A DNA stretch of 6,223 nt from a virus. The notes beneath the pieces are model-generated. The model worked only from the letters and a program-made list of their open reading frames with translations. It was not told the origin of the DNA and did not search any database. The stretch is taken from positions 1-6,223 of IMG/VR virus record IMGVR_UViG_3300045988_008367; one strand, written 5' to 3'. Positions 1 to 6,223 of this stretch are shown here, in pieces. Within the stretch, counting starts at the first letter, position 1; every line of letters begins with the position of its first letter. Made by a program: the position numbers and the translations under genes.

Positions 1-55
1 GAAATCTGATACAATGTTTGACCTCAAATATTGTAACTGGAACAAGGATATGTTG
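1..55. repeat. Terminal redundancy, left copy (circular-genome assembly overlap). Identical to 6169-6223.
   Basis: Direct comparison: gaaatctgatacaatgtttgacctcaaatattgtaactggaacaaggatatgttg occurs at 1-55 and again at 6169-6223. The offset of 6168 is divisible by 3, so the capsid reading frame is continuous across the junction. Confidence 0.95.
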
Positions 56-1101: not shown

Positions 1102-1584
1102 ATGATAGGAAAATTTAATTCTTTGGAATGTCTGGAACAAGGTTTTGGACTTATTCCTAATGTTGAGCCTGATGCTTTTGCAGTTGCTCCTGAATTTGAT
1201 TGCACTGAGGAACTTCGTGTAGAGATTGATGATACTGATGAAACTTGTCCGGTTCGTTATACTTCTGACGTTCGTTTGATTCTCCACACTAAGGACTTGG
1301 CTTCCCGTGCTGGTCTTGCTATTGCTTCTAAGTTTGGTCAAAGTAAACAGTCTGCTTCTCAGATTCAGCAGATTATGGATAACATGTCTGATGATGACCT
1401 TTTGGCGACGGTTCGTTCCCGGTATGTTCAGTCTCCTTCTGAGATTATTGCTTGGTCTAAAGAGTTGTCGGCTTATGCTGAAAACCTTGAATCTCAGGCT
1501 CAAGAGTTGATTGACATTGAAAACGCTAAACAAGATGCAGAAAAGGCGGTTGCTGCTTCCGCTGATGCTGCTTCCTCTGAATAA
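1102..1584 (+). CDS. Hypothetical acidic protein, 160 aa from the ATG. Possibly an internal scaffolding (VP3-like) protein; function not established.
   Basis: The track ORF 1096-1584 begins at TTG, and the first ATG is 1102. Same NNT codon bias as neighbouring genes. D/E-rich sequence (EIDDTDE, MSDDDL, C-terminal AEKAVAASADAASSE). It lies between VP1 and VP2, and its TAA (1582-1584) overlaps the VP2 ATG (1584-1586) as TAATG. I recognise no family-specific motif. Confidence 0.7.
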   Translation: MIGKFNSLECLEQGFGLIPNVEPDAFAVAPEFDCTEELRVEIDDTDETCPVRYTSDVRLILHTKDLASRAGLAIASKFGQSKQSASQIQQIMDNMSDDDLLATVRSRYVQSPSEIIAWSKELSAYAENLESQAQELIDIENAKQDAEKAVAASADAASSE

Positions 1585-2645
1585 TGGGTCTTCTTGGTTC
1601 AATCGCTGGTGGTCTTCTTGGCATTGGTTCTTCTGCTATTCAGAATTCTCAGAATAGACAGAATGTCCGGGAGACTAACCAGATGAACTATAAGATAAAT
1701 CAGATGAACAACCAGTTTAACGAGCGTATGGCGATACAGCAGCGTAATTGGCAGGAGAATATGTGGAATAAGGAAAATGCTTATAACACTGCTTCTGCTC
1801 AGCGTCAACGTCTCGAAGAAGCTGGTTTGAATCCTTATCTGATGATGAATGGTGGTTCTGCCGGTGCTGCTCAATCAGCTGGTTCTGGAGCTTCTGCCTC
1901 TTCTTCTGGTGCTGCTGTCATGCAGCCTTTCCAGGCTGATTACTCTGGTATCCAGCAGGCTATTGGTTCTGTGTTTCAATCTCAGGTCCAGCAGGCTCAA
2001 GTCTCTCAGTTACAAGGACAGAAAAACCTTGCGGATGCCCAGGCTATGCAGGCTCTCTCTAATGTTGATTGGTCTAAGATGACGAAAGAGACTCGTGAAT
2101 ACTTGAAAGCTACAGGTTTGGCTCGTGCCCAGCTTGGTTATTCCAAGGAAATGCAGGAACTTGATAATATGGCTTTTGCTGGCCGTCTTTTGCAGGCTCA
2201 GGGTACTTCCCAGTTGCTTGATGCTGAAGCCAAGACTGTTCTTAACAAATATCTTGATCAACAGCAACAGGCTGATTTGAATGTTAAGGCCTCTGAGTAT
2301 TACAATCAAATGTCTCATGGTCATTTGAACTATAATCAGGCTAGGAAGGTTCTTGCTGATGAGGTTCTTACTTATGCCCGTGCCAAAGGTCAGAAAATCA
2401 GTAATAAGGTTGCCGAAGCTACTGCTGACTCTTTGATTCGAGCTTCTAATGCTTCCAATCATTCGAATGCTGAATTTGAGATCGAAGCTTCTAAGTTCAA
2501 TCGTGAACGTGCTCGTTCTCGAAGTATTGAAGATTGGTACCGTGCCCGTAATGAAGGAAAGAAGTATAAATATTATGATGCTGACAAGATTGTGCATTAT
2601 GGTACTTCTATTGGTAATACTATAGGAAACTTCTTGCCTTGGTAG
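1584..2645 (+). CDS. VP2: Minor capsid / DNA pilot protein VP2 (H-like), 353 aa.
   Basis: Gly-rich hydrophobic N-terminus (MGLLGSIAGGLLGIGSSAIQ). Followed by the segment RQRLEEAGLNPYLMM, which I recognise as the conserved AGLNP region of microvirus VP2/H proteins. Long Q/A-rich predicted helical stretch. Position downstream of VP1. Ends TAG (2643-2645), immediately followed by an in-frame TAA. Confidence 0.85.
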   Translation: MGLLGSIAGGLLGIGSSAIQNSQNRQNVRETNQMNYKINQMNNQFNERMAIQQRNWQENMWNKENAYNTASAQRQRLEEAGLNPYLMMNGGSAGAAQSAGSGASASSSGAAVMQPFQADYSGIQQAIGSVFQSQVQQAQVSQLQGQKNLADAQAMQALSNVDWSKMTKETREYLKATGLARAQLGYSKEMQELDNMAFAGRLLQAQGTSQLLDAEAKTVLNKYLDQQQQADLNVKASEYYNQMSHGHLNYNQARKVLADEVLTYARAKGQKISNKVAEATADSLIRASNASNHSNAEFEIEASKFNRERARSRSIEDWYRARNEGKKYKYYDADKIVHYGTSIGNTIGNFLPW

Positions 2646-2667
2646 TAACTTTTGTTTGTCTTGTTTT

Positions 2668-2705
2668 GCCCGGTTCGTAGTGATACGCGCCGGGTTTTGT
2701 TATTT
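2668..2705 (+). terminator. Rho-independent-terminator-like hairpin plus T-run, downstream of VP2.
   Basis: CCCGG (2669-2673) pairs with CCGGG (2690-2694). The stem is extendable by a T2674-G2689 wobble and by C2676-G2687 and G2677-C2686. It is followed directly by TTTTGTTATTT. It lies 23 nt after the VP2 stop, at the end of the single apparent transcription unit. Confidence 0.45.
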
Positions 2706-2720
2706 GGAGTAACTTCTGGC

Positions 2721-2739
2721 AACCGCGCGTAGCGTGGTT
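2721..2739. repeat. Hairpin: 8-bp stem with a GTA triloop.
   Basis: AACCGCGC (2721-2728) pairs with GCGTGGTT (2732-2739), including one G-T wobble. The loop is GTA (2729-2731). The core GCGTAGC (2727-2733) fits the d(GC-GNA-GC) mini-hairpin pattern. Confidence 0.6.
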
Positions 2740-2815
2740 ATGCACCTCCCTGAATTCCGGGAGACTCCGTCGACTGGAATCAGAGCCGTTAGGCTATAGT
2801 ACTGCCTTCCTTAAA

Positions 2816-2839
2816 GCTTGCCGTTTGCAACGCGTAAGC
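2816..2839. repeat. Hairpin: about 10-bp stem with one bulge. Alternatively a GC-GTAA-GC mini-hairpin.
   Basis: GCTTGCCGTT (2816-2825) pairs with AACG-c-GTAAGC (2829-2839), with C2833 bulged and a G2820-T2835 wobble. The loop is TGC. The 3' arm alone reads GCGTAAGC (2832-2839). Confidence 0.5.
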
Positions 2840-2894
2840 AATTTCCCTTTAATCTCTTCTCTTCCGTCGCCGCTAAACACCTAAAATATAAATT

Positions 2895-2903
2895 GGCGAA
2901 GCC
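2895..2903. repeat. GGCGAAGCC mini-hairpin containing d(GCGAAGC).
   Basis: GGC (2895-2897) pairs with GCC (2901-2903) around a GAA loop. There is an exact GCGAAGC heptamer at 2896-2902. Confidence 0.55.
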
Positions 2904-2923
2904 TACCTGAGTTTGCCCAAAGG

Positions 2924-2948
2924 GAAAGCGATTTACCTCATCGCTTTC
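2924..2948. repeat. Perfect 8-bp inverted repeat with a 9-nt loop.
   Basis: GAAAGCGA (2924-2931) is the exact reverse complement of TCGCTTTC (2941-2948). The loop is TTTACCTCA (2932-2940). Confidence 0.65.
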
Positions 2949-3039
2949 AGTCTCCCCCTTGTCTTATATACGCAAACTCACAGACCAGCCTGCCACCCAC
3001 ATAGCTATTGTTTATTTATGTTAATAATTTACATGACTA

Positions 3040-3072
3040 TTTGTTTTTTTCAAATCTTTATTCATATCTTTG
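3040..3072 (+). promoter_or_regulatory. Candidate Bacteroidetes-type promoter: -33 TTTG and -7 TAnnTTTG.
   Basis: TATCTTTG at 3065-3072 is an exact match to TAnnTTTG. TTTG lies at 3040-3043, with 21 nt between the two elements. The site is 42 nt upstream of the first ATG of the gene chain (3114) and in the only sizeable non-coding block. Caveat: short T-rich motifs recur by chance in this genome, e.g. TAAGTTTG at 1328-1335 inside a gene. Confidence 0.3.
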
Positions 3073-3113: not shown

Positions 3114-3287
3114 ATGGAAAAGTATTATCTGTGTTCTATCCAGTCAAAGGTAAATCCTAATCAGAACGAAACTGTTCTTGTACCCGTTGACGAAGTTTCT
3201 GCATTTGTTTCTTCAAATCTTCGTCCGGATTGTATTCTTATCATTTCTCAATGTTCAACCTTTAAAGCAATTCCTGATGAAAAGTGA
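3114..3287 (+). CDS. Hypothetical protein, 57 aa (MEKYYLCSIQSKVNPNQNETVLVPVDEVSAFVSSNLRPDCILIISQCSTFKAIPDEK). First gene of the chain. Absent from the ORF track.
   Basis: Runs from ATG 3114 to TGA 3285-3287. 30 of 57 codons end in T, matching the bona fide genes. The overlapping track frame (3178-3276) has only 9 of 33. A/T-rich leader like the other starts. No recognisable homology. Confidence 0.5.
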   Translation: MEKYYLCSIQSKVNPNQNETVLVPVDEVSAFVSSNLRPDCILIISQCSTFKAIPDEK

Positions 3288-3366
3288 AACTAAATCTAAA
3301 ATCTGGTCTGCTATTATTGCAGCTGCTGTTAGTCTTCTTACGTCTATTGCACAAATATTTTCGTAA
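3277..3366 (+). CDS. 29-aa mini-ORF resembling a Sec signal peptide or single-pass membrane anchor (MKSETKSKIWSAIIAAAVSLLTSIAQIFS).
   Basis: ATG 3277 lies inside the track ORF 3178-3366. 16 of 29 codons end in T. Lys-rich n-region (residues 1-8), hydrophobic core (IWSAIIAAAVSLLT), and small residues at -3/-1 (S-I-A before Q26). It overlaps the 57-aa ORF by 11 nt. It is in the same frame as the peptidase gene, which starts 3 nt after its TAA. Confidence 0.45.
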   Translation: MKSETKSKIWSAIIAAAVSLLTSIAQIFS

Positions 3367-3369
3367 GCT

Positions 3370-3678
3370 ATGAACCCGAAATTAATGGATTTAATTGAAT
3401 GGCTTCTTCGTAAGAATGTTCATTTCGCTGTTACTTCTGCTTTTCGTACTTCAGAACAGAACATTAAGTGCGGCGGTTCTCATAATTCTCAACATCTAAC
3501 TGGTGATGCTGTTGATTTGAAGCCTATTGGTCTTTCAGTAGACGATTTTATTTTGAAAATTAAATGTTCTGGTTTTAGATTCGACCAGCTTATAAAGTAT
3601 CGCACATTTGTTCATGTTTCCTTTTCTCGTGCTCGTAGCCCCCGTCAAGTGGAATTAGATTTTACTGATAGAAAATGA
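3370..3678 (+). CDS. Peptidase M15-family (VanY / M15_3-like) zinc peptidoglycan peptidase, 102 aa. Putative endolysin.
   Basis: Exact S-x-H-x-x-G-x-A-x-D signature: SQHLTGDAVD, aa 40-49, nt 3487-3516. Preceded by VTSAFRTSEQNIKCGG, which parallels the (S/T)SGYR...N..GG block of M15_3 domains. Distal FVHVS His at aa 82, nt 3613-3615. 57 of 102 codons end in T. The TGA stop overlaps the rep ATG (ATGA at 3675-3678). Confidence 0.8.
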   Translation: MNPKLMDLIEWLLRKNVHFAVTSAFRTSEQNIKCGGSHNSQHLTGDAVDLKPIGLSVDDFILKIKCSGFRFDQLIKYRTFVHVSFSRARSPRQVELDFTDRK

Positions 3679-5378
3679 TTACCAAGGAATTGCAGAATAA
3701 GCTGGTGACTCGTTGTCAGCATCCTCGTACGGTTGTTAACAAGTATACACATGAGCCTGTTCTTGTGTCTTGTGGCTCTTGTCCTTCTTGTATCCTTCGT
3801 CGTTCCGGGATTCAAACAAACTTGCTTACTACTTATTCTGCTCAATTTCGTTATGTTTATTTTGTTACTCTTACTTATGCTCCTTGTTTCCTTCCTACTT
3901 TGGAGGTTTCGATTATTGAAACTTGTACGGACGATATTGCGGATGTGCCCTGCGTTCCCGATATTGATGACCTGGATGCTGGTGACCCTAACACTTATTT
4001 GTTTGGTTTTCGCAGCGTTCCTCGTTCCGCTTCTGTTAAGTTGAAGAATTCTACCGTCGAACGCACTTTTAAAGACCCTGAAGTTCGGTTTACTTATGGC
4101 ATGAAGCCTAAGGAGCTTTTGTCTATTCTTGGAAAGGTTAAGCATAATGTTCCCAATAGGATTCCTTATGTTTGTAATCGTGACCTTGATTTGTTTTTGA
4201 AACGTTTAAGAAGTTATTACCCGGATGAAAAATTACGTTACTACGCTGTATCAGAATACGGCCCTACCAGTTTCCGCCCGCATTGGCATTTGTTATTGTT
4301 TTCCAATTCCGAACGATTCTCGCAGACTGTTCTTGAAAATGTATCTAAGGCTTGGTCTTACGGACGTTGTGATGCATCACTCTCGAGAGGATTCGCAGCT
4401 CCGTATGTTGCGTCGTATGTTAATAGTTTTGTCGCTTTACCCGACTTTTATACTCAGATGCCAAAAGTGGTGCGACCTAAATCCTTCCATTCCATTGGAT
4501 TTACAGAATCAAATCTCTTTCCTCGAAAGGTACGAATTGCCGAAATTGATGAGGTTACCGATAAGTGCCTTGATGGAGTCCGCGTTGAGCGCGATGGATA
4601 TTTTCGCACAATTAAACCTTCTTGGCCGTATCTCCTTCGATTATTCCCCCGATTTTCGGACTCTATTCGTAAACTTCCATCGAGTGTTTACCAATTATTA
4701 TATGCTGCGTTCACTGCGCCCCAACGAGTCATTCACAGCGGATGTGCAGATTTAACTTGTGACCCTTTTAACGAGAATACTCCATTTAAACAAAGTATTT
4801 TGTCTTTTTGTAAACAGTATTTAAATTATGTAGATAATTATGGAAAAAGAAATGACGAGCGAAATATTCTTGCACCTCAAGCACGTTTACCGCATAGTGA
4901 TATTCTCATTCTTTCTGAATGTCGTTTGTACGATGGTGTTGATTTGGAAGCTTCTCATCGTCTCTCCCGCGTATACCGTTTTTTCCTCGGAATTGCGAAA
5001 TTTATTCGAACATATTCAACAGACGGATGTTCAGAGCTTTTCTGGTCCAGCGGCACTCCTGGAGGAGAACTCTTTGGCCGGGAAAAGTTCTTGCGCATCA
5101 TCTCCGGGAAAATAGTTGATTTTTGGAATCGTTATGATTACAACCGTCTTGTAGATTTCTATCAAACCTTGGAAGATTCCAATGACAAGGATTTGGTAGA
5201 CTTTGAGCTTCGTAACTATTCCTTCCGTTATGATAGAACTTCTCGTGATAAGGTGAAACCTTACCATGAATTACCTCTTGTTCGTCGTTTGGCTGCTGCT
5301 TCATTGATGAAATGTCGGGATAAGGTCAAACACAAGAAGGCTAATGATTTGTTTGGTATTTTTTCTTATCATGACTGA
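3675..5378 (+). CDS. VP4: Rolling-circle replication initiator, HUH superfamily (VP4 / phiX gpA-like), 567 aa.
   Basis: N-terminal Cys cluster CGSCPSC. Motif 1 FVTLTY (nt 3861-3878). HUH-type motif RPHWHLLLF (HWH at 4281-4289). Double-tyrosine motif YVASYVN (Tyr codons 4404-4406 and 4416-4418), compare phiX174 gpA YVAKYV. Confidence 0.93.
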   Translation: MITKELQNKLVTRCQHPRTVVNKYTHEPVLVSCGSCPSCILRRSGIQTNLLTTYSAQFRYVYFVTLTYAPCFLPTLEVSIIETCTDDIADVPCVPDIDDLDAGDPNTYLFGFRSVPRSASVKLKNSTVERTFKDPEVRFTYGMKPKELLSILGKVKHNVPNRIPYVCNRDLDLFLKRLRSYYPDEKLRYYAVSEYGPTSFRPHWHLLLFSNSERFSQTVLENVSKAWSYGRCDASLSRGFAAPYVASYVNSFVALPDFYTQMPKVVRPKSFHSIGFTESNLFPRKVRIAEIDEVTDKCLDGVRVERDGYFRTIKPSWPYLLRLFPRFSDSIRKLPSSVYQLLYAAFTAPQRVIHSGCADLTCDPFNENTPFKQSILSFCKQYLNYVDNYGKRNDERNILAPQARLPHSDILILSECRLYDGVDLEASHRLSRVYRFFLGIAKFIRTYSTDGCSELFWSSGTPGGELFGREKFLRIISGKIVDFWNRYDYNRLVDFYQTLEDSNDKDLVDFELRNYSFRYDRTSRDKVKPYHELPLVRRLAAASLMKCRDKVKHKKANDLFGIFSYHD

Positions 5379-5404: not shown

Positions 5405-6223
5405 ATGGCTTCTTACACTGGAATGTCCAATCTTCAGAATCATCCTCACCGTTCTGGATTTGATATTGGACGTAAAAATGCGTTTACCGCGAAAGTTGGT
5501 GAGCTTCTTCCCGTTTATTGGGATATTTCTATGCCTGGTGATAAGTATAAGTTCAATGTTGAGTATTTCACCCGTACTCAGCCCGTTGAAACTTCTGCTT
5601 ATACTCGGTTGCGTGAATATTTTGATTTTTATGCTGTACCGTTGCGTCTTCTTTGGAAGTCCGCACCTTCCGTGTTGACACAAATGCAGGATATTAATCA
5701 GATTCAAGCTTTGTCTTTGACTCAGAATTTGTCGCTTGGTACTTATTTGCCTTCTTTGAAACTTTCTGTTTTTAATAGTGTCTTTTATAGGCTCAATGGT
5801 AATGTTGATAATCCTGGTTCTGATGAAGGATTTAAAAATATGTTCGGTTTTTATCGTGCTGATTTATCTTGGAAGCTTTTATCTTACCTTGGATACGGAA
5901 ACATGATTTATTCTTCTCCTTCTTCCGGAAACCGTTGGTGGTCTACTTCTTTAAAAAATACTGGTGCTTCGTCACCTTATACCCAGTTGTATATACAGAA
6001 CAATTATGTAAACGTTTTCCCTCTTCTTGCTTATCAGAAGATTTATCAGGATTTTTTCCGCTGGTCTCAATGGGAAAAAGCTAATCCTTCTTCTTATAAT
6101 GTTGACTATTTTACTGGTGTTTCTCCTGACCTTATTTCCGTTCTTCCTCTTATCAGTTCTGATTACTGGAAATCTGATACAATGTTTGACCTCAAATATT
6201 GTAACTGGAACAAGGATATGTTG
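5405..6223 (+). CDS. VP1: Major capsid protein VP1, N-terminal part. Runs off the window end and continues at base 2. Not in the ORF track because it has no in-window stop.
   Basis: My translation from ATG 5405 is stop-free to 6223: MASYTGMSNLQNHPHRSGFDIGRKNAFTAKVGELLPVYWDISMPGDKY...EYFDFYAVPLRLLW...PLLAYQKIYQDFFRW. These match the conserved microvirus capsid blocks: R-S-x-F-D...G-x-L-P...PGD, the FxVPxRxxW block, and the P-L-x-A-Y block. An in-frame upstream ATG at 5381 is a less likely alternative start. Confidence 0.92.
   Translation, partial: MASYTGMSNLQNHPHRSGFDIGRKNAFTAKVGELLPVYWDISMPGDKYKFNVEYFTRTQPVETSAYTRLREYFDFYAVPLRLLWKSAPSVLTQMQDINQIQALSLTQNLSLGTYLPSLKLSVFNSVFYRLNGNVDNPGSDEGFKNMFGFYRADLSWKLLSYLGYGNMIYSSPSSGNRWWSTSLKNTGASSPYTQLYIQNNYVNVFPLLAYQKIYQDFFRWSQWEKANPSSYNVDYFTGVSPDLISVLPLISSDYWKSDTMFDLKYCNWNKDML
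6169..6223. repeat. Terminal redundancy, right copy. Identical to 1-55.
   Basis: See feature 1-55. Confidence 0.95.

Follow-up and report, generated by a model that had tools for sequence, protein, structure and literature searches.

A compact M15_3 peptidase and an upstream membrane peptide as a putative endolysin and holin-like partner in a Bacteroides-associated microvirus

The present analysis suggests, with a probability that we put at about 0.6, that this microvirus encodes an M15_3 endolysin which is made in the cytoplasm and let out by a minimal partner acting like a holin. The 102-aa peptidase would be a minimal, single-domain, zinc-dependent peptidoglycan peptidase acting as the endolysin of a temperate, Bacteroides-associated virus. 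A peptidase of this kind was already known in microviruses; the new point is an unannotated, conserved gene for a 29-aa membrane peptide. This gene lies immediately upstream of the peptidase gene and had been overlooked in the first reading of the window, i.e. the whole stretch of DNA analyzed here (6,223 nucleotides of the IMG/VR record IMGVR_UViG_3300045988_008367). The features discussed below are collected in Table 1.

Table 1. Features of the putative lysis and replication region, with positions in the window.
Feature	Position	Strand	Description
Promoter, Bacteroides-type	3040..3072	+	TTTG-N21-TATCTTTG (-33 / -7 elements), 42 nt upstream of the hyp57 ATG
hyp57	3114..3287	+	57-aa conserved protein, first gene of the module; 434 homologues
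Membrane peptide	3277..3366	+	unannotated, single-pass, 29 aa (MKSETKSKIWSAIIAAAVSLLTSIAQIFS); candidate holin-like partner
Peptidase (putative endolysin)	3370..3678	+	compact Peptidase_M15_3 / LAS-type zinc peptidase, 102 aa
Predicted substrate-carboxylate Arg of the peptidase	3445-3447		R26
SxHxxGxAxD signature of the peptidase	3487-3516		S40-Q-H42-L-T-G45-D-A47-V-D49
Predicted Zn ligand of the peptidase	3493-3495		H42
Predicted Zn ligand of the peptidase	3514-3516		D49
Predicted Zn ligand of the peptidase	3613-3615		H82
Rep/VP4 replication initiator	3675..5378	+	567 aa; Pfam REP_ORF2-G2P E=2e-12; PHROG 942 E=6e-35

The window holds a complete circular microvirus genome of 6168 nt, which is matched by Phage_F, pilot and Rep profiles. 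Its major capsid protein (MCP, ~620 aa) is 42% identical to VP1 of the Bacteroides fragilis microvirus phiHBP1. Relatives are integrated as prophages adjoining gyrA, and the GyrA of these contigs shares 89-91% identity with that of Bacteroides spp. A scan of 185,579 species-representative genomes revealed no prophage copy and only a weak partial match in a Conexibacter MAG; the evidence for prophages therefore comes from two metagenome scaffolds. The virus is not phiX-like and not demonstrably a gokushovirus; it appears to belong to an Alpavirinae-like, Bacteroides-associated lineage. The earlier note had set the gene against phiX-like microviruses and gokushoviruses, a framing that does not fit the sizes of the MCP and of Rep (567 aa), the identity of the MCP with that of phiHBP1 and the Bacteroides-like prophage contigs.

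M15_3 peptidases were previously reported in six Alpavirinae and five Gokushovirinae; an endolysin role was proposed for them, and five of these 11 genes adjoin an "unknown" ORF (Roux et al. 2012, PMC3394797). M15 peptidases are also known from phiHBP1 and from roseophages of the Occultatumvirinae, and the nearest GenBank genomes (87% nucleotide identity) already label the gene "peptidase". The earlier note mentions M15-like ORFs in some gut-virome microviruses, but the novelty attached to the gene was overstated, since its annotation exists and an endolysin role was proposed in 2012. Our literature search found no experiment on any microviral M15 peptidase. The gene studied here shares its Pfam family, virus family and proposed role with those of Roux et al., whose Alpavirinae copies are linked to Bacteroidetes. 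Whereas they saw a sporadic horizontal acquisition, the gene is here fixed, in a compact 102-aa form, and paired with a mini membrane peptide.

The assignment of the peptidase to the M15 family, initially based on the SxHxxGxAxD signature and a distal His, was corroborated by profile searches. Pfam PF08291 (Peptidase_M15_3) matches with E=5.9e-13 and 49.3 bits, well above its gathering score of 23.2, and PHROG 894 "endolysin" matches with E=2.4e-17; both are far beyond chance. The ORF opens with ATG and closes with TGA. Its distal His is H82, inside F80-V-H82 (an FxH motif), and its product also carries an FDQ motif whose D72 is a candidate acidic general base. The NCBIfam search gave no useful match. 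Since a PDB search with the single peptidase sequence returned only noise, a profile search was needed. Its best solved structure is 1LBU (E=5e-12), whose H154, D161 and R138 are aligned with H42, D49 and R26 of the peptidase; R26 sits in S-A-F-R-T, facing G-F-R-S of 1LBU. H82 is aligned with the third and last His of Sonic hedgehog (Shh) N-domain chains.

Structure prediction gave a concordant picture. The AF2 model (pLDDT 87) has 1LBU as its best PDB match in Foldseek (E=3e-3, prob 1.0), followed by Ply500, LysB4 and VanY. Against BFVD, 34 matches were obtained at E<1e-3, all of them M15A-type viral peptidases with TM-scores of 0.6-0.79. Support for a LAS fold is moderate, the TM-scores against solved structures being low. 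1LBU also carries a further domain, which binds the wall, at its N-terminus, and the catalytic His195 of its HxH motif corresponds to F80 in the peptidase. The TM-score between the two is only 0.51, and substrate specificity is not transferable from this enzyme. The peptidase would cleave peptide bonds of peptidoglycan in a Zn-dependent manner, as shown for its relatives LysPM1 and the phage ST79 endolysin.

Some features of the peptidase count against an endolysin reading. The Pfam profile is covered only from position 43 to position 108 of 108, and the ~35-45 N-terminal residues of typical 130-150-aa M15_3 members are missing. In these typical relatives, the profile match itself starts at residue 45-55. 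The peptidase is a truncated variant of M15_3, and this truncation is no ground for excluding it from the family. Near the metal, Ser84 stands at the position of D106 of LysPM1, the Asp of its HxD motif, and Tyr77 at that of Glu177 of Shh. The partial profile coverage, the HxS in place of HxD and this Tyr would suit a protein whose catalysis is weakened or lost and which acts, for instance, in regulation or by binding murein peptides. We consider such a loss of function improbable: the HxS/FDQ signature is common to many full-length relatives including annotated endolysins, the Zn ligands, S40 and N31 are invariant (R26 exceeding 90% in distant relatives), and the active LysPM1 has only 116 aa.

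The comparison with LysPM1 deserves more detail. This endolysin of Proteus phage Homer is an active Zn-dependent single-domain M15_3 enzyme with the triad H63/D70/H104 and R47 (PMC13461873); the phage ST79 endolysin is likewise a single-domain M15_3 protein with experimentally demonstrated activity (PMC5025407). LysPM1 and the peptidase share SxHxxGxAxD, (F/W)xH and a Tyr a few residues ahead of the last His, and their spacing agrees (16 residues from R to H, 40-41 from H to H). They differ in that the Asp located two residues past the last His of LysPM1, a proposed proton shuttle, is Ser84 in the microviral enzyme, which is 14 residues shorter; moreover, the phage that encodes LysPM1 is tailed and infects a proteobacterium. 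The endolysin reading of the microviral peptidase is favored by its subfamily (FDQ ... (W/F)xHxS), which is that of annotated tailed-phage endolysins encoded beside membrane proteins.

More than 1400 homologues of the peptidase were found, mostly of 102 aa and on contigs of ~6.2 kb, with equal synteny in several clades. N31, S40, H42, D49 and H82 do not vary across 75 diverse relatives, and H42 and D49 are likewise invariant in 39 close ones. H82 and R26 are also unchanged in close relatives, and R26 is conserved in over 90% of distant ones. The dN/dS of the gene is 0.19, and within clade A it occurs in divergent allelic types (61-80% identity), which may reflect an exchange of cassettes. As counted previously, 57 of its 102 codons end in T (55.9%); this proportion lies near those of MCP (60.1%), scaffold (56.2%), pilot (51.6%) and Rep (48.3%), against 25% and 31% when this stretch is read in its two off-frames. 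The impression of a long-resident gene was thus well founded: it is probably fixed and vertically maintained in a very large lineage, as judged from these comparisons.

No export signal was found at the N-terminus of the peptidase, in agreement with the earlier note: the maximal Kyte-Doolittle 19-residue mean over residues 1-35 is 0.53. This segment contains D7, E10, R14 and K15, and residues 3-14 form a helix of the folded domain in the AlphaFold model. A signal-bearing or SAR endolysin was ruled out on the basis of this low hydropathy, these charges and this modelled helix. Because it lacks both signal and anchor, the peptidase would be made in the cytoplasm, and it would have to cross the inner membrane to act on murein.

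The most likely route would be provided by the co-conserved peptide encoded just upstream, whose stop codon lies 3 nt ahead of the peptidase ATG. This peptide has a Lys-rich N-terminus and a hydrophobic span from W10 to F28 (Kyte-Doolittle 17-residue mean of 2.1), and it closes inside or just past the helix (...SIAQIFS), its charges being N-terminal. It was found in 64 of the 65 clade-A loci, with identities of 82-100% (61-80% for the peptidase in the same loci). Among its codons, third positions vary in 23 of 30 and second positions in five of 30, and its dN/dS is 0.08. The coding signature is strong, and the nearly invariant peptide is, like the peptidase, under purifying selection. In mar62, clade B, Dulem virus 226 and MG945488, the gene of the compact peptidase is immediately preceded by that of a 27-29-aa counterpart. 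This adjacency is kept in four lineages although the identity of MCP and Rep drops to 26-42%. The peptide was not found described in the literature that we searched, and the GenBank annotation of relatives omits it; in the record of Dulem virus 226, the peptidase is mis-started across the peptide gene and annotated as 124 aa. In bajarodmic virus 1155, the M15_3 peptidase is full length, and the TM protein encoded ahead of it (54 aa) is unrelated.

A longer version of the peptide ORF (62-86 aa), with a second hydrophobic segment, was considered and rejected: its upstream part is an off-frame of hyp57, which in 15 loci runs into stop codons within 11-26 codons and often lacks an ATG. In the window, this longer ORF (3178-3366) has no Pfam match, and the 29-aa peptide has none in NCBIfam.

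In the window, the ORFs of peptide and peptidase share one reading frame with only TAA-GCT between them, and the same 3-nt gap occurs in most clade-A loci, so that read-through of the TAA would yield one membrane-anchored protein. We regard this as extremely unlikely and rejected it. Spacers of 9, 15 and 21 nt (four loci) exist besides spacers of 13, 16, 16 and 32 nt (four others), i.e. the frame is not kept. An ATGA overlap places the ORFs of clade B, Dulem virus 226 and MG945488 in different frames, and another locus, L039, carries a 54-nt insert with stop codons between them.

If the two proteins are separate, the peptide would accumulate in the membrane and permeabilize it in a holin-like manner; the peptidase would then reach the wall and cut peptide stems or cross-links. 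The peptide shows two hallmarks of holins, namely a small size with one predicted TM helix and a gene adjacent to that of a putative endolysin. Counting against a holin-like action are its short length, the absence of a hydrophilic, highly charged C-terminal tail and the lack of a significant holin match: the only holin-family hit was phrog_443, with a non-significant E=0.13. A charged C-terminal tail is typical of holins, and the characterized holins that we know of are all far longer than 29 aa. The peptide should be considered holin-like in its proposed role and not a member of a holin family. That it is a genuine holin or a pinholin-like trigger, forming with the 102-aa peptidase a minimal two-component lysis cassette of less than 400 nt, is a tentative proposal to which we give somewhat less than even odds.

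The peptide could also be the lysis effector itself, either as an inhibitor of wall synthesis or as a membrane disruptor, the peptidase being an accessory that speeds lysis or clears murein. In phiX174, a single small membrane protein, E, lyses the host, its transmembrane domain acting on MraY; lysis by one such protein is known in microviruses. The constraint on the peptide is also stronger than that on the peptidase, as shown by the dN/dS values and by its near-invariance next to the divergent allelic types of the peptidase within a clade. However, the peptide does not resemble E in sequence, its TMD contains no proline, it always accompanies the compact peptidase, and the metal ligands of the latter are all kept under purifying selection. 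In addition, phiHBP1 lyses its host without such a peptide. Overall, this explanation is unlikely, and a peptidase that does the lysing with the help of the peptide is preferred.

Several known systems offer partial parallels to a peptide that releases an endolysin. In Xanthomonas phage Suba, a 39-aa single-TM "putative holin" (gp58), encoded immediately upstream, overlaps by ATGA, as in microviral clade B, the M15_3 endolysin gp59, which belongs to the same FDQ/HxS subfamily as the microviral peptidase. However, Suba is a tailed dsDNA phage, its holin label comes from annotation only, and a spanin-like gene lies downstream. No sequence similarity was detectable between gp58 and the microviral peptide, and no spanin-like outer-membrane function was found in the microvirus. 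In Bacteroides phage BF702P1, the M15_3 gene likewise follows one whose product has several TM segments. The first cultured microvirus of Bacteroidota, phiHBP1 (PV598014), belongs to the same broad group (42% identity for MCP, 27% for Rep). Its M15_3 peptidase is full length (134 aa), is encoded after Rep and not before it, and has a small ORF of ~54 aa ahead. The search next to this peptidase gene yielded no membrane peptide of 27-29 aa; as phiHBP1 forms plaques, such a peptide is not universally required.

Among other microviruses, the closest experimental case is Ebor (Tainavirinae), whose Gp7 is a peptidoglycan hydrolase verified by zymogram and whose Gp1 is a predicted membrane protein of 45 aa (PMC11980548). 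Ebor is a temperate, dif-associated prophage of Rhodobacter and belongs to another subfamily; no adjacency or functional link has been reported between Gp1 and Gp7 (PMC11980548), and Gp7 may be a hydrolase of another type than M15_3. Traces of Gp7 were detected in virions, which would suit the alternative that the microviral peptidase serves entry. In that case it would be virion-associated or released early and would make a local opening in the wall through which DNA is delivered, a task that M15_3 domains perform in the tails or baseplates of tailed phages. Its structural neighbors include M15A C-terminal domains of very large virion proteins (Atu_ph03, 1191 aa; Gp5 OB-fold), and a baseplate hub protein is also among the matches. 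Nevertheless, the peptidase gene belongs to a non-structural module with Rep, apart from MCP, scaffold and pilot, T=1 capsids offer little room, and the pairing with a membrane peptide suits exit from the cytoplasm and not entry from outside. Since the members of this M15_3 subfamily that are small and free-standing are also annotated or demonstrated endolysins, we see little chance that entry is the role of the peptidase, and lysis remains the preferred one.

The organization of the module (hyp57, TM peptide, peptidase, Rep) is consistent with joint expression. A single Bacteroides-type promoter would drive this tightly packed string, and its short junctions (an 11-nt overlap between the 3′ end of hyp57 and the start of the peptide gene, the 3-nt gap and an ATGA overlap) could allow translational coupling. 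The ATGA overlap with rep described in the earlier note was recovered (TGA at 3676-3678, ATG at 3675-3677), and among 87 sequences, comprising the window and 86 fetched loci, 59 have the identical AAAATGATTA peptidase/rep junction. The promoter is the only match of the consensus in the window, where 0.49 are expected by chance, and is not significant alone; the motif occurs in 55 of 64 related loci, its 3′ end clustering at position -41 or -42 relative to the first base of hyp57. This consensus reportedly comes from Bayley et al. 2000. Scans of the window for sigma-70 promoters showed no enrichment of promoter-like sites, and no terminator or Rfam match was found in it. Counting against the proposed reading, co-transcription with Rep would leave the membrane peptide as the sole temporal control.

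All the homologues of hyp57 are labelled "hypothetical", and no match to it was found in Pfam, PHROG or NCBIfam. Its AF2 model (pLDDT 86) is beta-beta-alpha-beta, with no significant structural match. The hyp57 profile did not significantly match the ORF of 54 aa located ahead of the peptidase gene in phiHBP1 (E=0.16).

For annotation, this work implies that public microvirus records omit the peptide gene and that some mis-start the peptidase across it. With two genes and ~400 nt, the peptide-peptidase pair provides a concrete and cheap hypothesis on lysis. If the peptide proves to be a holin, it would inform on the lower size limit for holin function; to our knowledge, a 27-29-aa peptide would be the smallest holin known. 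The canonical holin-endolysin strategy would then be miniaturized in a ssDNA phage, and synthetic biology would gain a lysis module of very small size. If the peptide is not a holin, the exit of a signal-less endolysin from the cytoplasm becomes a sharply posed question. Bacteroides-associated microviruses are among the commonest phages of mammalian guts. If the proposed mechanism is true, these abundant microviruses of the human and animal gut would lyse Bacteroides by a mechanism unlike that of phiX174.

The first and last 55 bases of the window (1-55 and 6169-6223) form an exact repeat and, therefore, the window represents a genome that was assembled as a circle, with a true length of 6168 nt, the end repeat being an assembly overlap. 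All its genes are carried by the + strand. The closest GenBank records are the faecal microviruses Dulem virus 236 (87% nucleotide identity across 97% of the genome), Dulem virus 257 and bajarodmic viruses 1134 and 410, which have the same gene order and in which the gene preceding rep is already labelled 'peptidase'. In GenBank relatives, the MCP begins at a Met matching residue 9 of the longest ORF (window position 5405); therefore, its true start may be 5405 instead of 5381.

Features of the viral genome (window coordinates)
Feature	Position	Strand	Basis
MCP (about 620 aa)	5381 across circular junction to 1087	+	ORF and profile matches
Scaffold	1102-1584	+	
Pilot	1584-2645	+	
Non-coding block, 470 nt	between pilot and hyp57		
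hyp57 (57-aa ORF)	3114-3287	+	
Membrane peptide (29-codon ORF)	3277-3366	+	
Peptidase	3370-3678	+	
Rep	3675-5378	+	

The non-coding DNA that separates the pilot stop from the promoter region includes a G+C-rich block (2646-3010) that is kept in the Bacteroides prophage copies. As ssDNA, it folds better than 100 of 100 shuffles (z = -3.4); at its start, a T-run comes after a GC hairpin (about 2669-2705), and Rfam gives no match. Possible roles of this block are those of a complementary-strand origin, of the structural-operon terminator, or both.

An earlier note, made from the sequence alone, had recognized the ORF preceding rep as an M15 zinc peptidase. This observation as a whole is confirmed and all its sequence statements are correct: the protein has 102 aa, carries the SxHxxGxAxD metal-binding signature (S40-Q-H42-L-T-G-D-A-V-D49) and a distal His (H82, within F-V-H), and lacks an export signal, its N-terminus not being hydrophobic. 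T-ending codons amount to 57/102, compared to 52-60% in the structural genes and 25-31% in the off-frames of the same DNA. The peptidase TGA overlaps the rep ATG (ATGA), a junction found identically in 59 of 87 sequences (86 fetched loci and the window). Profile and structure searches also agree with this assignment. In Pfam, Peptidase_M15_3 matches well over its curated threshold (E=5.9e-13), the match being confined to profile positions 43-108, and PHROGs family 894 'endolysin' matches as well (E=2.4e-17). An AlphaFold2 model built on 39 homologues (pLDDT 87) has the Streptomyces albus G zinc DD-peptidase (1LBU) as its best solved-structure neighbour, followed by the Listeria phage endolysin Ply500, LysB4 and VanY. 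In a viral structure library, 34 matches have E below 1e-3, all of them to M15A-type peptidases, including several from other microviruses.

A profile of 75 diverse relatives matches 1LBU (E=5e-12) and also the Hedgehog N-domain. H42, D49 and R26 align with H154, D161 and R138 of 1LBU, whose ligand assignments are given in PMC13461873, and H82 aligns with the third zinc ligand of Sonic hedgehog. N31, S40, H42, D49 and H82 are invariant in all 75 relatives, which speaks against the rival explanation that the peptidase is a non-catalytic derivative. The protein is indeed devoid of 35-45 N-terminal residues present in ordinary family members, and an exhaustive search revealed that lengths of ~100 aa characterize a narrow sub-group, most relatives having 130-150 aa. 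Furthermore, no obvious acidic general base is present: the Asp proposed after the last His of LysPM1, the endolysin of Proteus phage Homer, is replaced by Ser84 and the position of Hedgehog Glu177 by Tyr77, the remaining candidate being D72, in the conserved FDQ motif. The FDQ/HxS signature is common to many full-length relatives, including annotated endolysins, and for this reason is read as a subfamily trait and not as a loss of function.

The peptidase had also been regarded as a long-resident gene, which is borne out by its >1400 homologue clusters and its location directly before Rep in 80 of 80 fetched viral contigs. The majority of the homologues have exactly 102 aa and are carried by contigs of about 6.2 kb, and dN/dS is 0.19. 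Within clade A, i.e. the clade of the window, no protein is less conserved than the peptidase (61-80% identity versus 79-96% for Rep and 76-94% for MCP), whereas between clade A and a distant clade none is more conserved (50-54% versus 26-42% for the other proteins). This pattern suggests exchange of peptidase alleles, as a cassette, among related viruses atop vertical descent. Across 64 fetched loci (L001-L064), identity of the peptidase to that of the window splits into two classes, 61-64% and 68-80%, the neighbouring peptide and Rep being at least 90% identical; that of Dulem virus 236 is only 61% identical despite the overall DNA identity of this virus. The pilot of the same loci likewise divides into two groups of alleles, with about 70% or about 90-97% identity to the window; this division does not follow the similarity of MCP and Rep, a sign of mosaic genomes.

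Directly upstream, a 29-codon ORF stops 3 nt before the peptidase ATG. In its product, MKSETKSKIWSAIIAAAVSLLTSIAQIFS, a Lys-rich N-terminus leads into a single hydrophobic helix with many Ala, Ser and Thr residues (hydropathy 2.1). It was found in 64 of the 65 clade-A loci (82-100% identity), the sole locus without an intact copy (L019) having a stop codon and a frameshift. Third codon positions are variable in 23 of 30 cases versus 5 of 30 for second positions, differences from the consensus are 169 synonymous and 61 non-synonymous, and dN/dS is 0.08; judging from these substitutions, the ORF is a real gene under selection as a protein and not merely as DNA. Microvirus mar62 carries a counterpart, MKAETKSKLWAAIISALVSLLSNLANIL, in the same place. 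In clade B, a more distant lineage, the counterpart MKSSNIWKIVIGAVSAALGYILNAIGL (19/25 third and 1/25 second positions variable) has a stop overlapping the peptidase start by ATGA. Close variants of the counterpart also lie beside a compact peptidase in Dulem virus 226 and MG945488; in bajarodmic virus 1155, the M15_3 peptidase is full-length and has an unrelated membrane protein of 54 aa before it. A longer two-helix ORF around the peptide was rejected, its upstream part being broken by stop codons in many loci, as was a read-through fusion with the peptidase, whose frame is kept neither among spacer variants nor between clades.

The peptide gene is absent from the GenBank annotation of the relatives. 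In Dulem virus 226 (L090, PP511489), the annotated start of the 'peptidase' CDS (1138-1512, 124 aa) reads across the 3' end of the membrane-peptide gene; this CDS is called 21 codons too early, its likely start being the ATG at position 1201 of the locus (ATGA overlap). The annotated 178-aa M15_3 peptidase of bajarodmic virus 388 (L095, PQ006501, 904-1440) is hydrophobic close to its N-terminus (hydropathy 2.0 around residue 18), owing either to a real signal-anchor on the enzyme or to another mis-called start.

The Bacteroides promoter consensus, reportedly described by Bayley et al. in 2000 as TTTG, 17-23 nt, TAnnTTTG, was used as the scan pattern. Its sole match in the window (3040-3072, 42 nt before the hyp57 ATG) is not significant alone, 0.49 matches being expected by chance. 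However, the motif is present in 55 of 64 related loci, its 3' end clustering at -41 or -42 from the hyp57 start. Given this fixed distance, hyp57, peptide, peptidase and Rep appear to form a single transcription unit whose junctions are very short and along which we infer translational coupling. hyp57 has 434 homologues, all unnamed, and invariant Cys7, Cys40 and Cys47; its beta-beta-alpha-beta model, although confident (pLDDT 86), has no structural neighbour. Relatives have an extra 60-aa ORF before hyp57.

Integrated viral copies are present in metagenome scaffolds of 112 kb and 69 kb. In both scaffolds they occupy one and the same site of the chromosome, with a TPR gene beside gyrA, clpB and htpG on one side and a usp gene beside the BatD aerotolerance genes on the other. 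Integration has opened the viral circle between about 3012 and 3112 in window coordinates. The direct repeat ATATTAAACAT[A/T][A/C]TGCTGATATT flanks integrated relatives (locus L003, about 9468-9495 and about 15900-15925; also locus L089). This integration looks like the dif/XerCD type, which is known for other microviral prophages. The scaffold GyrA is 89-91% identical to that of named Bacteroides species, and the MCP of the window shares 42% identity with that of phiHBP1, the first Bacteroides fragilis microvirus brought into culture. Both likenesses indicate a diderm host, in which the cytoplasmic membrane separates the enzyme from its substrate.

The interpretation given in the earlier note, in which a dedicated peptidase implies a different lysis or entry strategy, is as a whole supported in part only. 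The best-supported reading is that the peptidase would act as a cytoplasmic endolysin and the membrane peptide as its holin-like partner. Single-domain M15_3 endolysins are proven in tailed phages (LysPM1, 116 aa, Zn-dependent, PMC13461873; phage ST79, PMC5025407). Xanthomonas phage Suba encodes an M15_3 endolysin of this subfamily whose start overlaps (ATGA) the gene of a 39-aa 'putative holin', and another such enzyme follows a multi-pass membrane protein in Bacteroides phage BF702P1; the microviral pair resembles a miniature of this layout. A less likely rival explanation is a role of the peptidase in entry. Several points count against the holin-like reading: the peptide has no charged C-terminal tail and no significant similarity to holin families, and no equivalent was found next to the longer peptidase of phiHBP1. 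The search for an outer-membrane (spanin-like) function found none, which also counts against a holin-endolysin system. Alternatively, the membrane peptide could itself be a single-gene lysis protein, although its conserved place beside the peptidase speaks against this.

M15_3 peptidases were described in Alpavirinae and Gokushovirinae in 2012, with a proposed endolysin role (PMC3394797), were mentioned in passing by Kirchberger et al., and were reported in marine Occultatumvirinae, in Rhizobium microviruses (as 'lys') and in phiHBP1. The Ebor paper (PMC11980548) presents a peptidoglycan hydrolase that, according to the authors, is the first from an ssDNA phage to be verified by experiment; a membrane protein of 45 aa is also listed there. 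Therefore, the peptidase belongs to a known kind and its novelty is low. No description of the peptide partner was found in the papers searched, and the novelty of the peptide-peptidase module is moderate. The interest of the finding thus lies mainly in the conserved peptide partner.
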